From Paraspadella gotoi (lineage: Eukaryota; Animalia; Chaetognatha): a DNA stretch of 14,366 bases. Positions within the stretch are counted from its first letter, which is position 1; every line of letters begins with the position of its first letter. Shown piece after piece: positions 1-14,366 of this stretch. The notes beneath the pieces were generated by a model. It was not told where the DNA came from. It did no database searches and saw only the letters and a list, made by a program, of their open reading frames with translations. The stretch lies in assembly GCA_051294375.1 (NCBI GenBank), contig JBJCIZ010000253.1, forward strand, positions 1 through 14,366, given 5' to 3'. The position numbers and the translations under genes are program-made.

Positions 1-192
1 TTTGCCGAATGATAAAGGTTACGTAACTGAAAAAAAATCATGAAAGAAAATATATATTGAAATGATAATAACAATGGCTATTTCAAGATGTGAACTAAAG
101 TAATTTAAGTAACATGCACATCTCATGATCTAGTGGGACATCCACATTAAATAACTCTAAAACAAGTTTGAGCAAACAATGTCGGATCTGCC

Positions 193-477
193 NNNNNNNN
201 NNNNNNNNNNNNNNNNNNNNNNNNNNNNNNNNNNNNNNNNNNNNNNNNNNNNNNNNNNNNNNNNNNNNNNNNNNNNNNNNNNNNNNNNNNNNNNNNNNNN
301 NNNNNNNNNNNNNNNNNNNNNNNNNNNNNNNNNNNNNNNNNNNNNNNNNNNNNNNNNNNNNNNNNNNNNNNNNNNNNNNNNNNNNNNNNNNNNNNNNNNN
401 NNNNNNNNNNNNNNNNNNNNNNNNNNNNNNNNNNNNNNNNNNNNNNNNNNNNNNNNNNNNNNNNNNNNNNNNNNNNN
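193..477. other. Assembly gap
   Basis: Run of N. Confidence 1.
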
Positions 478-478
478 T

Positions 479-524
479 TCATCAGTGCTTTTGACAATTC
501 ACAATTTTCATGTTTTCAAAATTG
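479..524 (-). repeat. Inverted second copy of 1987-2032, running into the gap at CTGATGAA
   Basis: Its reverse complement CAATTTTGAAAACATGAAAATTGTGAATTGTCAAAAGCACTGATGA matches 1987-2032 with one mismatch. Confidence 0.85.
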
Positions 525-984
525 TCGCAAACGCGATTGCGACAATAAAAATGGTCATCATCGAATTCTTCAGACCTTATTACAGTAAAATAATTATGAA
601 TGGAATTTAATATCTTATATTTTATCTTTGAATGCTCTAGTACCCATACATCAAATTTAAACTTAATCCATCCATCCATTCACAAGATATTGAAGTCTAA
701 AGCGGGGATGGACAGACAGATGGACGGACTGACTTACGGATGGACAGTCAAATTTTTTTTGCAATTTTTTTTTAAATATAATGTTTTAAAATAACTTACA
801 TAACTGACCATTGTGACCAATCAAATTATGATGGGAACCGACTAAGTGAATTATATAACCGGAATCTGCGATAAGCGCATCTAAAAATAATAAAAGTCAA
901 ATCAAAGCTAAAAAAAAAACAAAAAAGTCGTAATCAAATTCAATGTCAATTGGCCATTCAGAGTCGAAATGTTGGACGATGTCG

Positions 985-1075
985 TTAGAATCGGAAATGA
1001 GTCTTCCTCGCCCGCCTTGACTCTTGACAGTCTCCACCACTTCCGGCGAGTCGCTGTGAATCCGCGAGGCCCTCG
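985..1075 (-). CDS. Possible extra last exon, or 3' remnant, of the membrane-protein gene
   Basis: GC-rich island after a ttttttttaaatgtcAG acceptor. With the donor at 3829 it would read HEGLADSQRLAGSGGDCQESRRARKTHFRF*. The frame is ambiguous. Confidence 0.3.
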
Positions 1076-1289
1076 CTGACATTTAAAAAAAATATAAAGT
1101 TAGCATTTTTATTGTTGGGAAAGGCTAACTATACCAATATGGGGGTGGGGAATCTGATGGTAAAATCGTCGCAAACCTCGATATCGCTTGACTACCGGGC
1201 CCTGAATGAGCATTTTTAGCATTTTTTCGAATTTCCAATAATTTTTGTAGTTTATTATTATCCAACTGTTTCCGAGAAAGAAGCTGGAC

Positions 1290-1450
1290 AGACGCTGCAG
1301 GAGCCGGAACTCGTTTTTAGACAAATCAGAAGAACAGTGACGGGAAGAAAGAGAGAGAGAGAGAGAGCACATATTATTTAAAGAAAGAGAGAGAGAGAGC
1401 GACATATAATTAAAATGTTTTTGTTTTGTTAAATAAAAGCATAAACAAAT
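1290..1450 (+). repeat. (GA)n-rich dispersed repeat related to 5120-5421
   Basis: Shares TCGTTTT-AGAC-AATCAG, CTGCAG-AGCC, GA tracts, GACAT-TAATTAAAA and CATAAACAAAT with the second copy. Confidence 0.6.
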
Positions 1451-2022
1451 ACGAATATTGATAGAAACATGAGATTTAAAGATTTTGATGATTTAGAAGC
1501 CAATATATGCAAATTTCAACTCCCTATGATATCACACTTTCAGAAGCCATGATTGCAAAAAAGCGTGACCGAAAGCTAAACCGAATCAAAATCTAGCCAG
1601 GACGGGCTTTGCCGACAGGAAGTGACCATTTTGAGCTTTCTCTTTTTCTCTTACTCGCTTTCACTTACCTATCCCTCAACATCTTTATTTCAATTTCATC
1701 TAAACTTCGCTCCTTTATTAATTTTTATCTGAATTAATTTAAATATTTAAGTTTGTTTAAGTCTGTCTACTTATTTATTAAATTTACGCATTGTTGTACA
1801 TTTTCTAATGTAACTTTTCTCTGTCTCTCTCTCTCTCTCTCTCTCCCTCACTCACTCAAATTTAATTTCTTTTCCCTCACATTCTTTCTCTCTCTCTCTC
1901 TACTAACTTAAAACCTGTCCTCACATTTCACTACTGTCCTGTCTCATATCTTTGTTGGTCATTTCTCTCTCTTCTCTCTTCCAAGTCAATTTGGAAAACA
2001 TGAAAATTGTGAATTGTCAAAA

Positions 2023-2069
2023 GCACTGATGAGTGATGAAGGCTTGAATGAAAACTGAAACTTGTCTGT
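2023..2069 (+). ncRNA. Degenerate minimal hammerhead ribozyme-like motif (Penelope-like)
   Basis: GCA-CTGATGA-(gtgatga duplication)-AGGCTT…AAAACT-GAAAC-TT-GTC-TGT. Confidence 0.5.
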
Positions 2070-2280
2070 ACAATGCTGTATCAAGACTTTGTCTTAATTT
2101 TCAAATATCTAAAAACACAACGAAAGAAAGTTTAATCACAATGTTTATATAATTAACTAATTTTGTTTCCGCTACAATAAGAAATAAAAATTTTTTTAAC
2201 CACTTTCCCGTGCAAAGAAAAATTAATGACTATCACCGTTCAAATTCCTTTGATGAATAGACGCCTTAAGCTTATATATC

Positions 2281-2450
2281 NNNNNNNNNNNNNNNNNNNN
2301 NNNNNNNNNNNNNNNNNNNNNNNNNNNNNNNNNNNNNNNNNNNNNNNNNNNNNNNNNNNNNNNNNNNNNNNNNNNNNNNNNNNNNNNNNNNNNNNNNNNN
2401 NNNNNNNNNNNNNNNNNNNNNNNNNNNNNNNNNNNNNNNNNNNNNNNNNN
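2281..2450. other. Assembly gap
   Basis: Run of N. Confidence 1.
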
Positions 2451-3593
2451 CTTATGATATCATTTTTATCACTGGGTCCCCTTAAACGAACAAAAGGAAT
2501 CCATAAGACGAATTTGACAAGCTCTTAAGATATAACGCTATCGGAATCATTAGTTTTTACAACTGTTTTTTACCCGAATTTCTAGCAATCGCGTTTGAAA
2601 TTTGGGAAGTCAGATTTTAGCGGCAATCTCTATTAGAAAAATGTTGAATTTTTTTTTTTAAGCGACCTTAAGAAATTTATTGATCTTCAGATGCCTGGAA
2701 AGTATCCTTTTCAAGAAAAAAGTGATGAAAAAGAAATAAAGATGATTACATTTAATGATAAAATATTAATAGGTAAAGACAGAAAATGAAAAAGACAGAA
2801 GTTTCTTATTTTAAATTAGATGTCAAAGATTTGCTTCTGTAAACTTATTTCAATAAAGAGAGATAGGATCAAGTCCTTTAAGGCTACCGGATAGGAATCT
2901 GAGATTCTGATCTTTCCCGAATTTCTGATAAAGGAAGAATTACTTCTTTTTCGTCATTTTCAATTTCACCTTTTTATGTCACTGGTTTTTTAGTAATTTA
3001 GGCTCCAATCTGCCACTTCCAGCAAAAAAGTTTTCTACTGTGAGATAGCATGTAAATAAGCTACCCTAACCCATAATTATAATAACGGCCCAACTTTAAT
3101 AACTTTTTCTTTAAAAATAAACAATAGTTTGACCTTTGCATTGTATAAATAAACCAAAATTATTTTTGTCTTTTTAATGTAAAAAAGTCGATTGGATTGC
3201 TTTCAATAATCATTTACTTAAAAAATAATAATTATTAAAATAATAAATATAAAATTAGCAAAGTTTCAACCTAGTTTTAAATGAAAGCAAACCTGTTTAT
3301 TTTTATACATTGAAAAATTTTGATTGAACTTCACCTTTAAAGTGATTGATAAGGTCAAAACAGGGGAAAAATGCTCGTTCTGGGCCCTGTTTTTTAAAAC
3401 TGTTACTTCAAATTATGATAAATACTAGAGTTTATATAATAAAAAATTTAACTTTCTCTTTAGTCTAAAAAAGTAATTTAAATAGATTAATGATCTTAAA
3501 CATTTTAAAATGTGGGGAAAATGAGAAAATGCTCGTTCAAGGCCCGGGAGTCAAACGATTTCGACTAAACAGAGCAATTTCGACCTCACCATC

Positions 3594-3691
3594 AGCAAAG
3601 TTTTTTGAATTTTTTTACAACGATTTTATTTGTAAAAAATGTCTGCTTTACTACAAATAAAATCGTTGTAAAAAATTCAAAAAACTTTGCT
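3594..3691. repeat. Palindrome with about 40-bp arms and a 17-nt spacer
   Basis: 3594-3634 is the reverse complement of 3652-3691 with one homopolymer indel. Confidence 0.92.
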
Positions 3692-3825
3692 AATCTCTTA
3701 CAACAATGAAAGAAAGGATTAGACCATGAAGACCTCACCATCAAATTTCCCACCCAAAAATTGGTCTAATAAGCCTGTCACACCATTAAAAAAATAATTT
3801 TGAGTTTTTTTGAAAGATTTTACCC

Positions 3826-4216
3826 TCACTGTTTCTGGATCCCGTGACACTTTACGCGTTCATCGGCTTCGCCAGTGCAGGTCTCGCAGACGCCTGTAAA
3901 GCGGATGAGGTGAGATCGACGGGTATAACGGTAATCGTCCATGGAGGAAGAGGAAGGAGCCACGTTGATAGAGGAACAGGCGGATTTATAACGAACAGAA
4001 CACGATTCACAAAGATGAAAGCCAGGGATATCCGAGTGATGAGGGAGAGCGGGGACCATAAAGTTTGAGTCAGGTGGCACCGAGTAGACGGAAGCCGCGT
4101 CGATTGTTGAAAAGGAGCTAAAGAATCTGTCGGCGTGGGAGTAATAGACCCCGGAACAGGTGCAATTTTCTTTTGCTTGACGAGGAGGCGATTGATGGGC
4201 ATGAAGACATGGCCCG
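3826..4216 (-). CDS. Distal cytoplasmic exon (GPCLHAHQSPP…CESC…CETC…GIQKQ*), possibly terminal
   Basis: 391 nt, in the frame of ORF 3826..4230. Removing the element and one TSD gives continuous HIHPPSGPCLHAHQ. The TGA at 3826-3828 overlaps a possible GTGAGG donor. Confidence 0.78.
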
Positions 4217-7200
4217 CTAGGGTGTGCCAAATTTCTTAAGTTTTAAATATCTCAAAGAAGATCTACCACAATTTGTAGAGAATACATCGTCTTTTTTCCT
4301 GGTGGCTCAATTTCGATAAATTTGGTACCGATCGACGTGGAATTACGTAGGACTAAGCTCTGACAAACAAAGCCAGAGGTTTTTTTAATATATTCTTATA
4401 CCGGCCAAGGTTGACTGATGGCAATATTGTTAATATTAAGTTTCAAAAAAATCCGACCATAAATATAGAAAATATTAACCAAAATCTTTGGAAAATCCAC
4501 CCCTTCTTTAAAAGATTTTTGCCATAGAAGATTTTTCCCGAATCTGACTCCCGGTTGAAAACTCTTAGAATTCCGATCATTAGCTCCTCTTTTACTTTTA
4601 CTTTACATAAAAATTTTACCAAAATGGACTAATTCACTTTCCCATGGTCGTATCATATCAAAAAAATCTAAAAAGCATAAGGATCGTCGCAATCGCATAA
4701 GAAAAATCTGGATTTACGACAAATTTTGATACTAAAAAAATCAAATTTGAGAAAAGAAAATTAATTTATAAACAGAAAGAAAAAAAAGAATAATAAATAT
4801 AAAACAGTAAAATAACTTATTTTCGAGTTAAATTTTTAGCAAGTGCTTTGTTTGGAGAGACATTATTGAAGGTACTTTTGTTTTACTTTTAGCCTGCATA
4901 AGCGAGCAGTTTGATCGAATGCGACCTCTCTAAACACTGTCAACATTCCCGGACAAACTTGAATCAGACTGACAAAGTGAAGTAAAATAAAATAATAAAG
5001 TAAATATATATTTAAAAAAATATTATTCTAATTGATATTTAGAAAAAAAATCCATGAAAATCTCGGATGTAAATTTAGGAATAAATGGCGATAATAAAAG
5101 TTTTTAGAGGGAAAAAATTAATCAGAGAGAGAGAGAAAGCCAAATCGTTTTCAGACGAATCAGCAGCGGCAGCAGCAGAGGCACCCAGAAAAAAAGAAAG
5201 AAATCAAAAGGCAGCAGCAGAAGCAGCAGGAGAAAAGAGAGAAAAAGTAATAGCCCCTGCAGAGCCAGCTGCAGATTCGTTTTTTTTACCTTTCTCTATG
5301 AATCAGTTACTAGGGAAAAGAGAGAGGGAGAGAGACATGTAATTAAAAGAGAAAAGAGAGAGAGAAAAAAATATGAAAATAAAAGAGAGAATTTGTTTGT
5401 TTTGATAAAACATAAACAAATCATATTTAATAACTGTCCAGACTCAATTTTAAGCATATCAATGATGAGAACCTGTATATAAATTTTCAACTTTATACAC
5501 CCAAATTTAATCATAAAAAAGGCGATCTATAATTTGGAACGCTGACAACGACGACGCCATTTATGCGCAAAAGTGTTACAATATCTAGGAAAGTCTGGCG
5601 TTAAGCGTCCGAGATTAAAATTAGCAAATAATAGTCGTTGTTTTACTCACTGAATAAAATTACTTAATAAAATTACAAAATATATAAAATTGATAAAATT
5701 ATTATTGTGATAACATTGTTCAATCACAGGCAACACATCCAGTACCCTTTTTTTCATTGAAATTGACAGATATCAACTATAAATATCAGAATTAATTTTT
5801 CTTTTTGATACAACAAGAGAACTGAACCTCTGTCGCTGGATGTCGTCAGGTTACTAGTAAATATGCGTTTGAGGATTCCAAATATGTTTTTAAAATTGAC
5901 CTACGTAAACGCTAGAGCGTTGAAAAATAACAAAATATAACAAATCAGGTGAGTTACATAGCTATTTTAGTGTAATGTAGTCTGTAGAATTCGATGGTGA
6001 TAACCTTTTTTTTATAATTTTATCTTTCTTGTCGGAAATGATGGTTTTTAAATGTATATAAAATTTTTATAAAATAGCAAAAGCATTATAAGTTATGATA
6101 AATCAAATTATTAAGATTTTATAAAATTTATATGAGCTTTTGAAATATAAAAAATAAAACTTATAAAAATATTTTGGTAAGTTTATTTCTAAATTTTATG
6201 TTTTATAAAAAGTTAACTATATTTATTAATAATTAATGAGTAAAAATTAGGTTAAAGTTAAAAAATAATAATTTCAAAATTTTTTTCATGGATTTGCATT
6301 CTTTGCAAAAGTTGATATAAGAAAATATAATTTTTATATCAAAATTATGTCATTAATTTGGTCAAAATTCAGAAAAACTATAATTTTTAAGCTAAAAAAT
6401 TGAAAATTGAACAAAAATAATAGTTTTGAAGAGACAGAAACCGTTCAATATAAGCAGTCCCTGAGCTTCGGATTCAGGCTGTAACACCATGTTACAGGCG
6501 GGTTAAGCGCCCCTCCCTCTTAACTGCCAGACGGCCACCGGGCGGCTAGAACCCCCGGACCTTTGGGTTGGGAGGCGAATGACTTGCCTCCGGCACCAAT
6601 GGCCGCTGATGACTGTTGGTGGATTTTAGTCCACCATACATCCCCCTCCCATAGGGAGAAGTCTGTTGCGTCTCTTCAGTGAATTGTTGTTGGTGGAAAG
6701 TTCGTCACCAAGAGTTGAGGCATGTCCGCCTGATGTGTTGTGGGCGGAAAAGTGCATCGCCAGGTTGAGGCATGTCGCCTGAAGTGTTGTTGTTGCTGTT
6801 GTGTTCGGAAATCGGGCTCACCAATGAAGAGACAGTAATTATTGATAAGTGTTATTGACAGAACCGTTCAATATAAGCAGTCCCTGAGCTTCGGATCAGG
6901 CTGTAACACCATGTTACAGGCGGGTTAAGCACCCCGTCCCTCTTAACTGCCAGACGACCACGGGCTAGAACCCCGGACCTTTTGGGTTGGGAGGCGACAT
7001 GACTTGCCTCCGGCACAATGGCCGCTGATGAACGGTTGTGGATTTAGTCCACCATAGTTTTTAAATATTTTTAACCTACTTAATGAAAGAATTTTTTTAA
7101 ATGGATTATACTTGCGGTAGCCGACCAAATTCAAATTTTAATGGGAACAGTAATTAAACTAATCCATTATTGCTATTAATTATTGTATTAAAATATTTTT

Positions 7201-10200
7201 TTGCCAAAAATGTTCCGAACCATGAGTAATTCGCTAATTAAATATTATTATATTGCTATATAATGTCAAAATTTTTTTTAGATATTTTAAGTTTTTTTAA
7301 TTGATTCTGATAGAGCTTAAAAAGTTAAGCAAAAATATAATTACAACTTTTAAAATTTTGCTGTTTTATTACTAAAAATTAATAAAAACTGCTAAATCAT
7401 CGGATGATGATGATGATTTTTTAAGGTTTTTCCCAATTTTGACCCACTTATCATCAAAATATTGAAAAAAAGAATATACTTTGTGTAGACAACTTTTTAT
7501 AAGCTATCTGAATCTGCTTTTAAAATTACAAATTTTAAAAAAATTTTGACATTTCCTATCTATAAATAAATATTAAAAATTAATTACTAATGCTTCTAGC
7601 CATTTTTAGAAAATTTTGGTCCATTGAAAAGTTTTCTCAGAAATGTATGAAGTTTCATTTAGAGAGGTTCCCCAAATCAAACTTCTGACCCACCCCATTG
7701 ACAAAGTTTGGCTCTAATTATACTTTCTTATACAACTTTTTGTAAAGGAATTCAAATCCGGTTTTAAAATTTAAATTTTTAAATTTTTTATTTTAGCTTA
7801 TTTTTTATTATTATTCAGTATTTACAGAGGAGGATTTAGCCTGCCGTCCAATTCTCCTCTTCCTCTTCTTCTTTTTCCTCCTCCTCCTGCCCCTCAGTAT
7901 ATTTTGTCTAGCGATATATTCTCTCGTTTCTACTCTTCGTGAAATATACCATTATTGTCCCTCTATTTCTTCACGCCTTCAATACCCCTCAAGTGACGCC
8001 CTCTTCGCGGCTCGACACCCTACTCCCCGTGGATTAAGTTTTCCGTGCAAACCCTCAGCAAAAAAAACTGGAAATTCCCTCAAGAAACTCGTGCATTAAA
8101 AACCAAAAACAGAAATTTGGAAATATGCTCAATTTGATAGAAGAAATATAACTATTTTACTAAATTACTTCAAAAAAGAAACTGCATAATTTTAAAAATA
8201 TAAAACCCTACCTTATGTTAATTACATGATAACTTTCTCCTTTCTCTTCACTCTTCGTCAACCGAAACTTGGAATTTTCAAAATCTAAACATCAAACTTT
8301 GAACCTGGCGACTAAAAACAAGATCGATTCAACTCTCTTTTTCTTTCTTTCTCTCTCTCTCTCTCTCTCGGCGACTGAAAATGGCAAAAGTTGAGATTGG
8401 ACTTTAACCTCTTAAAGAAACGGAAATAGCAAGTCCCTTAATGTGGAATATAGAATAGACACTCCCTGAAAATGGCAGCAATCAACTTTAAAGATCCAAT
8501 CAGTTCTGATGACCTCAAAGGAGAATATATTGGCATCTTGGATAACCTGATTAATTTTTCTAAAAGATTGCATACTAATAATGCAAACCCACGAATTCTG
8601 GACAAGAATATAATGAATCTACTTGCTTTGGTGCAGAATACACATATGTCCCCTCTGCCTTTAAAAACCCAAACTGTCTCCACCTCAACTCAAACCTATT
8701 TCACCCAAGCCAATGCTTCAACCCAGACCACAAAAACCAAGGCCAGTTGCAATCAATCTACTCAGACAAAATTTCCTTACTTAACCTCCTCTTCCCAAAC
8801 TACCCAAACCACCATCATTTCTGATTCAGTTTCAACTCAAACCAATGTTGCCAAGACTGATTCTCAAGTGCAGACCGACCTACCAACTGTCAAAGACTAT
8901 ACTAATGATGTGAAAACTCAAGCTGGAAAAATCCAAGGAGAAACTTCATTTGCAAGAATCAACTCAAACAAGAATCAACACAAAAATCAAGCCTGCTCTT
9001 ATCAGTCTTCGGTCAAGAAATGGGAAACAAAATCAAGAAATGAAAGAACTGGACCCTGGAAAGAATACATGATCCCTCAAACCTGCGCTGAAAAAATCTA
9101 TATCCCCCCTCATCGACGTGTTCCTCAAGACGGCAAGAAGGCAAGCAGCTTTTGGAAAATGCAAAAATACTTACCCTAAACTGATGGAAATAGACTTACG
9201 ACATGGTTGCGCCAGAAGTTTGCTGCATTTTTGGCTCAGACTTTACCATTGCTTTTTTTAAGAATCAATATCAGTCATGGTGCAGTGGCATAATTTGTCA
9301 ATGACTGTGACATAAATTAAAAAAAAACTTTTAATCATTTAAATAATAGCTTTGATAGAAATCCAATAGTTTTAGTTTGTGACTTCTCTCACTTTTTTAG
9401 TTCTGTGTCTTTGTTTTTTTTAGTCCAGAGGGAAGCATGACGATGTCATGCCACGCCATTGGGGGCCTGGACATGACATCTTGGTCAAGAATTCAGTTGT
9501 ATCCTGATATGATTGACAAGATTAAAACCTTGATCAAGAATGATTTAAAAATGTACACAAGACTCAAAGTCGCCCAAAAATGTTTTGTATCTATTTAGAA
9601 TGTCAAAGCTCATTATAATTCTTGCAGAATATGATATGGATTACTCAATACCTCCCTAGCTAATTATATTAAAAAATTCGAGCTCGATATGGATATGATT
9701 TCAAATAAAAAATATCTAAAAAATTATCCTTCCATTTTTTCATCATTTTCATCAAAATGACAATCCTGAACATACTGAAAATATTTATCTTAATTAAAAA
9801 CAACTATATAATAGACTCCAACCCCTGTCACCAAACACCAAACATATTTTTAGCTATTAATTTGTTTTTAAAAAATTCTTTTATCTTTCATTAAAATTTC
9901 AAAGTTTTATATTTTATAAAGATTTTGTTTAAAATTAATACCAAAAAATATCCTATTTTGTTATTTTTTTTAATTTTATATGAAAATTTGAAAAATTACT
10001 AGTTTCACTATCTTATATTTTATATTTTATGAATGTTTTACTATTTAAACTGTGTATAAACTATCAATTTTGTTGCGTTTTGAAATTTAGGAGAAAAAAA
10101 AATTTATTTGTTTTTATCAACGAATTGTATTATTGTTAATACATGTTTCGACTCTTGAGTTTTGATGAAGCTCTAAAACTCAAGAGTCGAAACATGTATT

Positions 10201-13200
10201 AACAATAATACAATTCGTTGATAAAAACAAATAAATTTTTTTTTTTCTCCTAAACTATTTAAACTATATTATTTAATTATATATATATTACTTTTTAAAA
10301 ATATTATTTGCTTATTATATCTAATAACTCATTTGGGAGGGGGAGGTCAGTGTTGTCTTCTGGAAATAGAGGGAGCATCTATACAACACAAGGTTAGACT
10401 ACAATAGAATACAATTAGACTACAATATCTAATTTAACATCATTTGGCTTCAAATTATTAAAGATAACCTTTCCCTTTTAAATCTTAGCAAATTAGATCA
10501 TAAGTTTATCAGTTATATCTTAGTTTTAAAGATCCTTTCCTCAATTAAAAATTGCCTCCTTTTATTCAGTTAACTACTAGGTAAACCAAATAATTACCTA
10601 TTACCTACTTAAGAAAAAATCTTTGCCTAAGTTCACCCTTTAATCTCCAGCAGATTGTTGGTGCTGTTGTTAAGCTCAGAAATGTAGTTGAGACTTGAAA
10701 TTCAACAAGAATAAACTTTTTACATTTCTTTAACTGTTTGATGAGAGTGGACGCTGATATCTCTCATAGTTTAGACACAATGAATTATGATGTGCAAGGT
10801 GTGCCAAAAATCCTTCAAGTGCCGGTAGCGCTAAGAGTGTTTGAATTTGAATAGCAATTGATGGAAACCTATTTTTTTAGGCCTCCACAAATTGTGTAAG
10901 ATGTTCTTTGAGATATTTAAAACTTGAGAAATTTGGCAAACCCTAATGGCCCGCTCGGCGGATGAATGTGCTCTGCCTTTTCTGAATGGATGTCGGCCTG
11001 GACGACATGGTATGGAGAACCGCAATCGTTGCCAGATGAATTGTAGTCTTCTTCCTGAAGGTCAGCAAAACTTTCCTCGCTGGCGACAGGCGAGACGTCA
11101 TTGAATAAGTGGCAATTGGGTTGTTGTGATCGATTCACGGACTTGCTCTTTGCGGAATCTTTCTTCGTCGCAGTTTTTTCTTTTATCCTTGCGTCCAATC
11201 GATTATAGGTAACTCCCCATTTGATTTTCTTTTTGCAACACGAGCAACAGAGATGTCCACATTCTACTTTTTTGAAGCAGACGGAATTTCCAGAGAGAAA
11301 TATATATAAAAATATTGCCATGGTAATAAGGGTGCCCACAACAGCAATTGGAATCCAAGTTGACCCTGGAACTGGTGTCGTCCATTTTTCGTTAACTGGC
11401 AAATCCGGATTTTCCCAATTATTCTTAATAATTTCAGGTTAGGGTATGCCAAATGCCAAAAGTTGCTCGGATTTCAAATGAGGTCCAGGATAATATGTGG
11501 AAGCCTAAAAAAATATGTTAGGAACGATCGCCATTTAAATAAGTTAATTACTGGCCGTGCTACCCTGCCTGAATGATCTTTGGCACACCTTTCAGTTCAT
11601 AATTCATTGTGTCTAAAAGTTTTTGGGTCCACTTAAGTTTATTAGTTGTAAAAGTATATGAAGTTAATTCAAATAAATTTTCAGATCCCAACTACCTTTG
11701 GAGGCTCTGCTGCAGCATTTATAACATGCTGGAGGAGGTGGTAGCTATTTTTTGAGTGCTGATGATACTATAAAAGGTTCCTATAAATTATATTCATTAA
11801 CAACTAATTTGTACAGTTTTTAAAATTAACAATTAAAATTTAAAACTAACAATTATATTCATTAACAGAGGAGGATTTAGCCTGCCATCCAATTCTCCTC
11901 TTCCTCTTCTTCTTTCCTCCTCCTGCCTCTCAGTATATTTTGTCTACTGTCTAGCGATACATTCTTTCGTTTCTACTCTTCTTAAATTATATACAAAATA
12001 TATATCTATTAATTAAATCGTAAGACAGTTTAATAAAAATTTTTGCTAAGTCTTATATTGATTGACCAACTACTTCTCATGGGGACCTTTTTTGAAGGAT
12101 TCTGAAAATTTATCCCCACACCTCATCAGTTAAATATGCTGGAGAATGTGGACAAAGGCTGCTGATGATAAAGCTTTTAATTAAAGAATAAAATCCTTAT
12201 TTTTGACTAAAATATGGTCATATAAATGATACGATAATCATACCATTACTTGTGATACATAATGATTATAGATCAATATATTTGCTATTAAAACTTGATA
12301 AAATATGATTTTATATATATGATACGACACCTACGCCACTTATGCCCAAAAGCGTTACAAGATAACTTCATATACTTTTACAACTAATAAACTTAAGTAA
12401 ACACAAAAACCTTTCTTACTTTAGATACAATGAATTATGAAGTGAAAAGTGTGCTAAAAATCCTTCAAGGCAGGGTAGCACGGCCGGTGATCAACTTATT
12501 TAAATAGCGATTGTTCCTAACATTTTTTTGGACCTCCACATATTATCCGAGACCTCACTTGAAATCCGAGCAACTTTTGGCATTTGGCACACCCTAATGG
12601 CAGGTGGAGGCGTCGTCGTAGTCTTGGCATTTTGAGTCACAGGCGCTGTCGTAGATTTGTCCATATGGGTAACTGTCGAAGATGTGTTTGTAGTCTTGGC
12701 GTTGTAAGAGGTACGGTCGTTGTCTTGGCGGTGAGGCGGAGGCATGGGTGAGGTTGTAACTGTGGCGGTTTGGGTAAGAGGAGGCGTCGGACGGTTTGTG
12801 AGAAGCTGCCTCAAACGATCTACTGGAAAATCAACGTACCTTGAAGAGAAAAGATTTTTTATTTCCTTCTGTTTTTGAATAAAATATTAAGTTGGATTGT
12901 TTTCTGGTCTCACCACATATTCACATTCTCCATCGACGCCTTTCCAGATTTTGTTTTCTCAATAAGAAATCCCATACAATAAGCGAGCATAAGGTGTCCC
13001 AAGTGAAACGTCCCGGTTGGCTTAGTGGAGCCTTTGTAGATCTTGATCCAGTTGGCCTTGGAGGAGTTATGACAATCGGCGTCGGCCGAGCCTTCGATCT
13101 CGAAGAGGAGCGGAGCCGAAGCCTCCGTTACCGACGTGAACGAAAAGTTGAGGACGACCTGAAGTGAATGAAAATCGAGACCAAATTTTAAATCACTGTC

Positions 13201-13500
13201 GTCTTTAATTTAGGATGGGGGAGGTTGATATTGAACCAATATTCGTTGTGGAATATCATTGCAGAAGGAATCAGAACCGAAAATAGAATCGGATCCGCGA
13301 CTCGGGTGAAATCCGCCGAAAGCCGGATTCCGCTCTTTCATTGGACGAACCACCAATGGAATTGACCAATCACAAGCTGGACTTCATGCCATCGAGAAAA
13401 CCAGCCCGATGATCCGATGGCTGGGTATTAGACACATTTGAATCCGACAAAGTTTTAATTAGATAACCAGTCTGGGTGTCATTCTGTTCGTTTTTCCAAG
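3826..13500 (-). CDS. Spliced gene, 5'-incomplete, for a single-pass type I membrane protein: discoidin/F5-8 type C-like ectodomain, Thr/Pro-rich stalk, TM helix, Cys cluster and Tyr-motif cytoplasmic tail
   Basis: Exons were joined by hand with GT-AG introns and consistent phases: about 13374-13500, about 13197-13332, 12914-13158, 12593-12839, 10942-11423 and 3826-4216. The last five join in one open frame. The exons are GC-richer than the surrounding DNA. Confidence 0.8.
5120..5421 (+). repeat. (GA)n/(GCA)n-rich dispersed repeat related to 1290-1450
   Basis: Same motifs as 1290-1450, with a low-complexity purine-rich strand. Confidence 0.6.
6427..6637 (-). mobile_element. tRNA-derived SINE-like repeat, copy 1 (tRNA-like head 6531-6606)
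   Basis: The minus strand reads GCGGCCA…TGCCGGAGG (A-box-like)…GGTTCTAGCC (B-box-like)…TGGCCGT, with pairing acceptor-stem ends followed by a non-tRNA tail. It is nearly identical to copy 2. Confidence 0.65.
6685..6825 (+). repeat. Degenerate tandem repeat, about 57-bp unit, 2-2.5 copies
   Basis: GTTGAGGCATGTC(C)GCCTGA-GTGTTGT occurs at about 6714 and about 6763, and GGAAA…CACCA/CGCCA recurs. Confidence 0.7.
6856..7056 (-). mobile_element. tRNA-derived SINE-like repeat, copy 2 (tRNA-like head 6954-7025)
   Basis: Direct repeat of about 6433-6637 with small indels. Acceptor-like stem GCGGCCA/TGGTCGT and B-box-like GGTTCTAGCC. Confidence 0.65.
7824..7938 (+). repeat. Dispersed repeat of about 115 bp, copy 1
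   Basis: ACAGAGGAGGATTTAGCCTGCC-TCCAATTCTCCTCTTCC… is nearly identical to 11865-11981. Confidence 0.9.
8472..9179 (+). CDS. 235-aa intronless ORF with multiple TQT motifs, nested antisense in the large intron; possibly a TE accessory or ORF1-like protein
   Basis: Longest ORF in the window, with good start context (AAAATGG). It has six TQT motifs plus SQT and VQT, and a C-terminal YIPPHRR. Confidence 0.6.
   Translation: MAAINFKDPISSDDLKGEYIGILDNLINFSKRLHTNNANPRILDKNIMNLLALVQNTHMSPLPLKTQTVSTSTQTYFTQANASTQTTKTKASCNQSTQTKFPYLTSSSQTTQTTIISDSVSTQTNVAKTDSQVQTDLPTVKDYTNDVKTQAGKIQGETSFARINSNKNQHKNQACSYQSSVKKWETKSRNERTGPWKEYMIPQTCAEKIYIPPHRRVPQDGKKASSFWKMQKYLP
10086..10254. repeat. Near-perfect palindrome with about 78-bp arms and an 11-nt spacer
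   Basis: 10086-10163 is the reverse complement of 10175-10254 except for homopolymer length. The spacer is GATGAAGCTCT. Confidence 0.95.
10158..10202 (+). ncRNA. Minimal type I hammerhead ribozyme-like motif (Penelope-like)
   Basis: tTGATGA-a-GCTC…GAGT-c-GAAAC-AT-GTA contains the core boxes, a helix II and a palindromic helix III (ACATGT). The first core C is T, and helix I is poor. Confidence 0.5.
10942..11423 (-). CDS. Exon with TM helix (WIPIAVVGTLITMAIFLYIFL), Cys/Lys-rich juxtamembrane segment and proximal cytoplasmic tail
   Basis: 482 nt, in the frame of ORF 10917..11402. It lies exactly between two transposon ends. The hydrophobic helix is followed by basic residues. Confidence 0.82.
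11440..12596. mobile_element. Non-autonomous TIR DNA transposon/MITE of the same family acting as an intron; 1157 bp
   Basis: About 180-bp TIRs at 11440-11620 and 12417-12596 begin TAGGGT(A/G)TGCCAAATGCCAAAAGTTGCTCGGATTTC. The TSD copies are ATTTCAGGT (11431-11439) and ATGGCAGGT (12597-12605), 7/9 identical. Confidence 0.92.
11865..11981 (+). repeat. Dispersed repeat of about 115 bp, copy 2
   Basis: Matches 7824-7938 in the same orientation. Confidence 0.9.
12593..12839 (-). CDS. Exon: YVDFPVDRLRQLL… Thr/Pro-rich mucin-like stalk …TTTTPPPAIR
   Basis: 247 nt. Acceptor is ttttctcttcaAG. It overlaps ORF 12500..12814 and ends at the AGG|GT inside the transposon TIR. Confidence 0.8.
12914..13158 (-). 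CDS. Exon: VVLNFSFTSVTEASAPLLFEIEGSADADCHNSSKANWIKIYKG…ENVNMW (discoidin-like core)
   Basis: 245 nt and open. It is bounded by a pyrimidine-rich CAG acceptor and a GTGAGA donor. P-x-x-F-x-I-E-G-S-x-D…W-x-x-I matches the F5/8C / galactose-binding fold pattern as I recall it. A 74-nt intron (12840-12913) follows. Confidence 0.8.
13197..13332 (-). CDS. Probable exon (…SAMIFHNEYWFNINLPHPKLKTT); 5' boundary uncertain
   Basis: The frame is open from 13337 to 13197. EYWFNINL resembles the discoidin WLQIDL motif. A 38-nt GTGATT…cacttcAG intron (13159-13196) follows and joins in phase 0. Confidence 0.6.
13374..13500 (-). CDS. Probable exon of the membrane-protein gene (WKNEQNDTQTGYLIKTLSDSNVSNTQPSDHRAGFLDGMKSS); 3' boundary uncertain
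   Basis: Acceptor ttaaaaatAG at 13502-13501 is followed by an open frame. FLDG resembles the AFDG motif near the start of discoidin-type domains. A candidate donor GTGATT lies at 13373. Confidence 0.5.
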
Positions 13501-14366
13501 CTATTTTTAACTAAAAAAGTTTTATTTAAAAAAAAAAAATTTTCGCCCGAGCCAGGGGTGTTGAAGAGTCAAAATATAGTTAATAGACACCTTTTTCCGC
13601 TGAAAATTGTCATAGAGTTATGAAAAAGGTATCATTCTTTTCGTATTATAGAGCTATACACAATGAAAGCATTTATAATGCATTTTTTTAAATATCTCGC
13701 CTTTCCCGGAAGCGTTAAAGTGCCACGGGCGTCAAAATAATTGATTTTCAGCAATTTCTGAGGTTTTTCATAACAACTTTTTAGATAATTATAAAAATAA
13801 GGATAAAATTTGTATTACCTGTTATACTTAAATGTTACCTAAAATATTTAATCGTAATTTAAACAACCTCAAACCGTTATTAAGAATTTTTAATAATATA
13901 ATAAAACTGGAAGTTAAATTATTAGCATGAAATTTTTCCTAAAAATGAAAAATTAAGATCACAGATTCAAATAATTTAAATTGCTACAAGAAAAATGGCA
14001 AAGACCAAGTTTTAAAAGATAAAAATAGATGTATTTTGTAACAAAAGTTTTATACAACACAATCCAGTACTACTGAAGGGACTATAGCTGAGTCAATAAG
14101 TGATGACCAAAATGGCCGTAACCGTTTTCAAGTTTAAATTTGGGATGGTCGCGTCGATTCATATCAATTGCCTGCAAAATTCATGAAGTTTGCTCAAGAT
14201 TATTGGGAATTGCAAAGGTCATTGCATTTGCAAACTTGACCTAACGCTCAGCGGCATCATTGAGTAAAGAAAATCCGTTTAAAAATGTGATGAAAGCTTT
14301 TAAATTTAAATTATCTTTCCATTTACTAGAACCAAATTCCTATAGACGATCCCAAACCTTTTTTCA

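Follow-up and report, generated by a model that had tools for sequence, protein, structure and literature searches.

Two related terminal-inverted-repeat DNA transposons as the likely source of consecutive introns in a gene of the chaetognath Paraspadella gotoi

The origin of new animal introns is a long-standing question. In one described mode, introners, which are introns derived from transposable elements, carry a splice donor and co-opt an acceptor (PMC11282704; Gozashti 2022, PMC9860276). A survey of 835 genomes of animals and plants recorded introners in only two groups of animals (PMC9860276), and a search of the 2025 introner table by terms found animal rows for tunicates and sea urchin only (Gozashti 2025, PMC12130899). 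Here we describe a window of 14,366 nucleotides (nt) from Paraspadella gotoi (GenBank assembly GCA_051294375.1, contig JBJCIZ010000253.1, positions 1 to 14,366), in which two consecutive introns of a minus-strand gene coincide with two related DNA transposons, E1 and E2. Each is removed from the transcript with the frame kept, by use of a donor of its own, and we conclude that these non-autonomous elements probably created the two introns when they inserted into the coding sequence.

In maize, Giroux and colleagues are said to have found in 1994 that a Ds element in an exon was spliced from the pre-mRNA via donors close to the element's end, with a small number of additional bases remaining; Ds reportedly differs from E1 and E2 in being a hAT element with an 8-bp target-site duplication (TSD), studied in laboratory alleles and spliced in an orientation-dependent way. 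The IE1 introners of Micromonas pusilla, which are of the miniature inverted-repeat (MITE) type, resemble E1 and E2 in being non-autonomous with terminal inverted repeats (TIRs) and TSDs, in bringing the donor and in taking the acceptor from the duplicated target (PMC11282704). They are short and have a 3-bp TSD, whereas the elements described here have a 9-bp TSD, TIRs of up to about 230 bp and lengths of 1.2 and 6.7 kb, are spliced inexactly, and include a second mode in which an exonic AG beyond the duplication is taken. Introners of Aureococcus sp. add 12 nt, composed of 4 bp of the element and 8 bp of the TSD, which is the sum found for E2; they are described, however, as bringing both splice sites, whereas the E2 acceptor is half element and half target and E1 gives −3 nt (Gozashti 2022, PMC9860276; bioRxiv 10.1101/2022.06.06.494994). 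Kilobase-sized, RNA-seq-checked animal introns derived from transposons are represented by hAT introner family 1 of Styela clava (about 1.3-2.1 kb) and family 1 of Strongylocentrotus purpuratus, the purple sea urchin (about 0.9 kb) (PMC12130899). The Styela family has hAT-Charlie termini, TIRs of 17-19 bp, an 8-bp TSD, the 'co-opt both' mode and GT in only 2 of 6, and the sea urchin family is classed as lacking long terminal repeats (non-LTR), in contrast to the long TIRs, 9-bp TSD and donors in both ends found here. Nine-bp TSDs are noted in two rows of the same table, for clover and dinoflagellate families, and the 2022 introner pipeline allows copies in opposite orientation (Gozashti 2022).

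RNA contigs across the two elements

Exactly four TAGGGNNTGCC ends were found in the window, at 4218 (+), 10945 (−), 11440 (+) and 12596 (−), which confirmed the element coordinates of an initial annotation made by a model from the sequence alone. That annotation had also predicted the minus-strand junctions 12593^11423 and 10942^4216, and with them the removal of both elements as spliceosomal introns from a TIR-borne donor. The RNA evidence on this point consists of assembled contigs of one public run of one study (X1), whose RNA status was guessed, with one contig per junction. X1 contained 0.39 of the sampled words of the stretch, and two other runs, X2 and X3, matched with 1 and 0 records, respectively; none of the matching runs was annotated as RNA. 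The results showed both predicted junctions exactly, with GT..AG ends. The E2 joint 4216^10942 (CT..AC on the plus strand) lay in a single contig of 1358 nt, which matched the window without a difference along 483+393 nt, and the E1 joint 11423^12593 (also CT..AC on the plus strand) in one contig with a depth of 56.3 and a shorter side of 29 nt. Fifteen joints were present in X1 over positions 3000-12900; only these two had splice-type ends, and the other 13 fell among repeats inside the elements. Over positions 10700-13500, X1 held three joints, namely 11423^12593, that of a 74-nt host intron (CT..AC, depth 119.7) and one belonging to a related gene. Since the 74-nt host intron was skipped, X1 contains spliced RNA. 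Moreover, the skips across E2 and E1 were 6725 and 1169 nt long, compared with 6737 and 1166 nt expected from an empty allele, and therefore represent splicing rather than absence of the elements. The exon contigs had 0 differences from the window, and the joined exons gave 455 codons with a single stop at the end (454 open), whereas the other two frames contained 10 and 15 stops. It follows that this gene is expressed and that GT-AG splicing takes E1 and E2 out of its transcript.

If X1 were DNA, the joints might be footprints of excision, or might come from an element-free second copy of the gene. The RNA status of X1 is a guess, and X1 includes a related gene whose likeness in one exon is about 90%, which leaves some room for this. 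However, each skip retains TAGG precisely and is bounded by GT..AG, X1 skips the 74-nt host intron as well, and the joined contig matches the window without a difference across 876 nt, so that an origin of the joints in DNA is largely refuted and hardly credible.

Splice-site recruitment, target duplications and reading frame

The sequence TAGG|GT, which the initial annotation reported in every TIR, was seen at all four ends. It serves as the donor of both introns, 4 nt inside the TIR, and the transcript keeps TAGG. The acceptor of E2, CCCTA|G, is composed of the element's last A and the duplication's first G, and the mRNA gains 4+8=12 nt. The E1 duplication begins with A, and the E1 acceptor is therefore taken beyond the end, at the first AG, 16 nt past the element, where the mRNA loses 3 nt. 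The protein is thus restored inexactly: 12 nt are added at E2, giving PPSGP-LGGP-CLH, and 3 nt are lost at E1, where PPAI-IK-NN is changed to PPAI-R-NN. The motif CTAAC, formed by the E1 TIR end and the duplication, lies 19 nt before the acceptor; it was the sole such motif among the four acceptors examined and is a candidate branch point for the E1 intron. Introners are recognized by intron ends at transposon ends, by removal with the frame kept and by similar introns at unrelated positions. At this locus the donors lie 4 nt inside the TIRs and the acceptors 1 and 16 nt beyond the element ends, both joints are present in X1 with 454 codons open, and similar introns occupy two sites of one gene; families in the rows seen of the 2025 table have four or more copies across genes (Gozashti 2025, PMC12130899).

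Both elements had been annotated with 9-bp TSDs, which held perfectly for E2 and only in part for E1. The E2 duplication ATGGCCCGC is present twice with 9/9 matches (chance at fixed register 4.4e-6), whereas the E1 flanks ATTTCAGGT and ATGGCAGGT match at 7/9 (chance 1.5e-3), a discrepancy that the initial annotation had left unmentioned. As claimed, removal of each element with one duplication yields EHIHPPSGPCLHAHQ and TTTPPPAIIKNNWEN, a continuous peptide. These empty-site reconstructions are open and contain no leftover intron, so neither element inserted into a pre-existing intron. A true duplication of 4 bp, with the ATGGC beside both right-hand ends being element sequence, would explain the E1 mismatches, since both right flanks start with ATGGC, whereas the four final bases of every 9-mer match perfectly at both sides of both elements; the empty site for a 4-bp duplication is also open. 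The left flank of E2 reads ATGGC too (9/9), however, the TIRs are symmetrical at TAGGG/CCCTA, and with opposite orientations an element-borne tail would not share one side in both copies, which makes the shorter duplication quite improbable. The two target sites are alike at 6 of 9 bases and both end in GCCAT on the sense strand; pairs of 9-mers equally alike make up 1.2% (2.2% allowing either strand) of the 828,828 pairs in the gene. A target preference or a splicing filter is therefore only hinted at, post hoc and from two cases.

Insertion was then simulated at 1056 positions of this gene. The frame was rescued in 21.8% of the cases (230/1056) for a 9-bp duplication and in 21.7-22.1% for duplications of 3, 6 and 12 bp, compared with 10.9-12.0% for other lengths; the 167 sites without an AG within 60 nt were counted in the denominator. 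The 230 rescued cases comprised 137 of phase 0, 93 of phase 2 and none of phase 1, where the terminal TAG is a stop, and 111 of them were at +12 nt. The observed introns are of phases 0 and 2.

Together, these results led us to propose the following course of events. A DDE transposase located elsewhere in the genome would have mobilised E1 and E2, which would have inserted into exons with a 9-bp target duplication, the donor being brought by the TIR. Since both TIRs carry a donor, either orientation would be workable. A target beginning with G would always give 4+9−1=12 nt and, 9 being a multiple of 3, would be frame-neutral, which would roughly double the share of surviving insertions. Insertions with the terminal TAG in frame would be lost, and no phase-1 introns would be expected. 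Once E1 had turned into an intron, the duplication copy inside that intron would have drifted, and E2 would have grown by gathering other repeats.

Several observations weigh against this proposal. Two in-frame copies would arise by luck in about 5% of cases at 22% rescue, a rate that presupposes a donor in the TIR and an acceptor at the first AG downstream of the element; frame preservation alone is thus weak evidence, and the RNA joints carry the claim. All of the RNA support, in turn, comes from the single run described above. The two mismatches between the E1 flanks count here as well, and the host gene had no detectable relative in the protein collections searched, where no empty-site ortholog or paralog was seen. 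As regards E1, the 29-nt shorter side of its joint is below the 31-nt bar of the method, its depth of 56 compares with 107-120 for the flanking exon contigs, and a 123-nt contig (depth 12.8, 6 differences) crosses 11395-11517 unspliced. The short side, the roughly halved depth and the unspliced contig at the left border would also suit a situation in which E2 is a true intron and E1 a polymorphic or poorly spliced, leaky insertion allele. In a predicted RNA fold, moreover, the two 230-nt TIRs of E1 pair from the first base, with the donor and the branch-like motif buried, and our guess is that this stem could explain a weaker splicing of E1 than of E2. On the other side, the upstream exon contig stops at 12593, after TAGG, whereas an empty allele would, judging from the contig breaks, branch at 12595; no 1166-nt skip appeared among the records of the filtered listing; and the 14% divergence of the E1 TIRs, like the drift of its duplication, suggests that the insertion is old and has been retained. 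A leaky E1 allele is accordingly unlikely in our judgement, and the creation of both introns by insertion is retained as the best explanation. An excess of T>C/A>G differences, considered as possible RNA editing of the TIR stem, came largely from the contig of the related gene.

Kinship, interiors and classification of the elements

The ends of E1 and E2 are about 66-70% alike, with 40-42 identities in the first 63 nt and, over about 230 nt, 156 identities, 69 mismatches and 13 gaps (BLAST E 6e-20), and on this comparison the two are related subfamilies, not near-identical copies. The initial annotation had given TIRs of about 180 bp, which fitted neither element. The E1 TIRs match each other over about 230 bp with 203 identities, 22 mismatches and 12 gaps (86%), and the E2 ends match over 63 bp only, the left TIR of E2 having no continuation further inside (6 of 6 comparisons not above shuffles). 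An inverted copy of the terminal motif lies about 140 nt inside in three of the four ends, and is likely a transposase-binding site.

Beyond the TIR, the E2 donor end aligned with the E1 acceptor end (score 49, 0/2000 shuffles) and showed no alignment with the E1 donor end (26.5; 586/2000 shuffles). Among 587 windows scanned, the 15 scoring at least 49 consisted of 11 self-overlaps and 4 at the E1 left end. E1 and E2 thus likely lie in opposite orientation, so that both ends would have served as donor; our confidence in this is moderate, because it is based on one 70-nt stretch. Two interior segments are shared by the elements (7820-7948 with 11861-11991, and 5554-5584 with 12333-12363); their strand is the same in both but their order is reversed, which fits simple collinearity in neither orientation. 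Given the increase in X1 depth across these segments, we interpret them as separate repeats.

It is also quite possible, at somewhat less than an even chance, that E1 and E2 are two one-off lucky survivors, that is, spliceable but ordinary TIR elements in an indel-tolerant, fast-evolving gene for a membrane protein, with no wider intron-making family behind them. Their limited likeness implies separate, old events, splicing is inexact (+12 and −3), the two insertion sites are in protein stretches of low complexity, and the simulation rescues about 22% of random insertions in any case. Two hits of the same lineage at consecutive positions of one gene are unlikely, however, unless exonic insertions are common, and the variant X1 contigs on the E1 TIRs, up to 14 at one position, point to further copies; they fit a multi-copy family as a hint only. 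Survival by luck differs from the best explanation in scale only. In metagenome contigs, a strict TIR pattern gave 0 matches and a relaxed one a single match (L001:1642-1784, minus strand), with 0 in viral contigs. This match was not counted as a family member, as it shares with E1 and E2 only a 14-nt end motif and the inverted inner motif, here about 130 nt inside, and lies on an unrelated-looking contig with no second end; its likeness is due to chance or to a distant element of similar architecture.

The best reading of E2 is that of a non-autonomous element enlarged as other repeats inserted into it later, given its high X1 depth, a nested 634-bp insert with its own duplication and the lack of a Pfam domain. 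X1 depth bins over 4324-7964 ranged from about 1,300 to 24,000, compared with about 107 for the middle exon. The 634-bp insert, in which a 200-bp unit occurs twice alongside a 51-bp tandem repeat, has the peak X1 depth of the window and no Rfam match, and is skipped by a joint in X1; it appears to be similar to a short interspersed nuclear element (SINE). A TQT-rich open frame of 241 codons at 8454-9179 (+) inside E2, with an ORF of 238 aa, is covered by several variant X1 contigs and gave no match in Pfam, the protein collection or Atlas. A near-perfect palindrome at 10091-10247, with 73-nt arms at 99%, is skipped by the X1 joint 10039^10254; it and a second one at 3602-3684 (38-nt arms at 87%) are likely small foldback elements. 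A protein-like stretch near the E2 right end was rejected as a transposase remnant, since its frame was not the best of six (46 versus 49 and 55) and Pfam and PDB gave nothing. The kilobase scale of the elements, which the initial annotation had called unusual, is on record for the introners of Styela clava and the purple sea urchin, and much of E2 appears to consist of nested repeats.

TAGGG or CAGGG terminal motifs with short TIRs are linked to hAT transposons, of which some subgroups have 9-bp TSDs, and AcademH elements have TAG-type ends and long TIRs. E1 and E2 carry the TAGGG motif at their ends, and their TIRs are long. With TIRs, a TSD and no transposase found, they are non-autonomous TIR DNA transposons; none of the 12 read-through frames of E1 and E2 matched a Pfam family, Pfam being without models for some superfamilies such as Academ (PMC5751038). 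The label 'Mutator-like' given initially is unsupported. A TSD of 9 bp and, in E1, TIRs of about 230 bp do suit Mutator-like elements (MULEs), for whose MuDR relatives TSDs range from 4 to 10 bp (PMC10045372), but the termini here are TA..TA, not the GG/CC by which the only Mutator introner of the 2025 table was classed (Gozashti 2025, PMC12130899, Dataset S2 row 590). The TSD of hAT elements is 8 bp as a rule (bioRxiv 10.1101/2021.11.26.470093), compared with 9 bp here. AcademH has TSDs of 9 or 10 bp (PMC10045372), a length shared by E1 and E2, in which no transposase or helicase remnant was found. On these features Mutator would fail on its termini and hAT on TSD length, and AcademH would fit in TSD length.

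The literature covered, with Repbase, Dfam and subscription journals excluded, contained no description of this family, and a search for TAGGG in 14 supplement files gave 0 matches; with that scope the negative is a weak one. Nor did the same literature show the combination of long TIRs with a donor at both ends, a 9-bp TSD and two modes of acceptor recruitment in a single gene; further rows of Dataset S2 may contain similar families. The mechanism is of a known kind, and the family is apparently undescribed.

Host gene and implications

The window is AT-rich, repeat-rich eukaryotic DNA in which GC-richer islands correspond to exons of the minus-strand gene (GC content 44-52% in exons versus 32% in the elements). 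The features are collected in Table 1.

Table 1. Positions of the elements, duplications, introns and host exons in the window
Feature	Position	Strand	Description	Basis
Host exon with stop codon	3824-4216	-	stop at 3826-3828	
E2 TSD, left copy	4209-4217		first sense-strand base (G, 4217) completes acceptor AG	
Intron attributed to E2	4217-10941	-	6725 nt, GTTTGC...CCCTAG, phase 2, net +12 nt	X1 joint
E2	4218-10945		TAGGG...CCCTA, 6728 bp, interior full of other repeats	end-motif scan, TSDs
E2 left TIR	4218-4280	+	63 bp, 57/63 against right end; acceptor end	
Nested GC-rich insertion in E2	6420-7061		634 bp, own 8-bp duplication (6420-6427, 7054-7061)	
E2 right end	10645-10945	-	donor end; aligns with both E1 ends over ~230 bp and with E1 left end over ~70 bp more	
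Host exon between E1 and E2	10942-11423	-	482 nt; hydrophobic segment, Cys-rich stretch; 3' end is four TIR bases, TAGG	
E2 TSD, right copy	10946-10954		identical to left copy, exonic	
Intron attributed to E1	11424-12592	-	1169 nt, GTGTGC...ATTAAG, phase 0, net −3 nt; first AG past element end used as acceptor	
E1 TSD, left copy	11431-11439		now intronic, 2/9 bases differ; forms CTAAC branch-like motif with TIR end	
E1	11440-12596		1157 bp, TIRs ~230 bp (11440-11666, 12363-12596)	
Host exon, stalk	12593-12839	-	Thr/Pro-rich; 3' end is four TIR bases, TAGG	X1 contigs
E1 TSD, right copy	12597-12605		exonic	
Ordinary host intron	12840-12913	-	74 nt	spliced in X1
Host exon, discoidin-like	12914-13158	-	discoidin (F5/8 type C)-like	X1 contigs; language-model features, lead only

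The host product is a putative single-pass membrane protein with a discoidin-like segment, which as a lead only had an Atlas score of 0.94 with 150 of 256 features in common, a Thr/Pro stalk, a hydrophobic segment and a Cys-rich stretch, a composition that would suggest an animal host. Both insertion sites fall in its low-complexity regions, namely the stalk and the cytoplasmic tail. None of six segments of the protein matched Pfam, and word-index protein searches with two host exons gave no match. Eight phmmer matches, all to repeat-rich proteins of other families, were rejected as summed weak matches.

The related gene is represented in X1 by a 4095-nt contig (depth 446) over 12912-13161, with 24 differences in 250 nt. 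It has the position of the 74-nt intron in common and departs in the stalk near 12762, before the E1 site. Upstream of 13158 on the minus strand, a 38-nt intron (13159-13196) is probable and a 39-nt one (13335-13373) possible; an X1 contig with 10 differences spans 13254-13406 gap-free, across the latter, and the 5' end of the gene is putative. At the other end, an X1 contig ceases to match the window at 3824, only two bases past the stop, where the sequence reads AGG|GTAAAA; its remaining 482 nt lie elsewhere, and the break at 3823/3824 is likely a further intron, in the 3' untranslated region. Near 1075 (about 930-1075, minus strand) there is a good acceptor with a GC-richer, coding-like stretch. 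Two further inverted-repeat pairs, interleaved rather than nested, lie at 479-524/1987-2032 (98%, 46 nt) and 1178-1216/3526-3564 (87%, 39 nt), and represent putative other TIR elements downstream of the stop. Rfam gave two weak microRNA-family matches at 3592-3693, on the 3602-3684 palindrome, both far under gathering scores.

The preferred explanation would extend to a genome-wide introner family, as we infer. More tentatively, and less likely than not, the undescribed long-TIR, 9-bp-TSD lineage may be a major, orientation-independent source of introns across the host genome, in which case two hits at consecutive positions of a gene would be typical of hundreds of genes. The donor at both ends, the frame neutrality of G-starting targets and the barring of phase 1 by TAG would then act throughout, and a GCCAT-like target preference or splicing filter would shape the sites of survival. 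Our proposal predicts an absence of phase-1 introns, an excess of +12 nt at G-starting targets and a faster drift of intronic duplication copies. Such introns would be easily overlooked, as later nested repeats enlarge them and wipe out their interior similarity. At this locus, two neighbouring cases supported by RNA come from a single lineage, recruit their acceptors in two different manners and probably represent both orientations.

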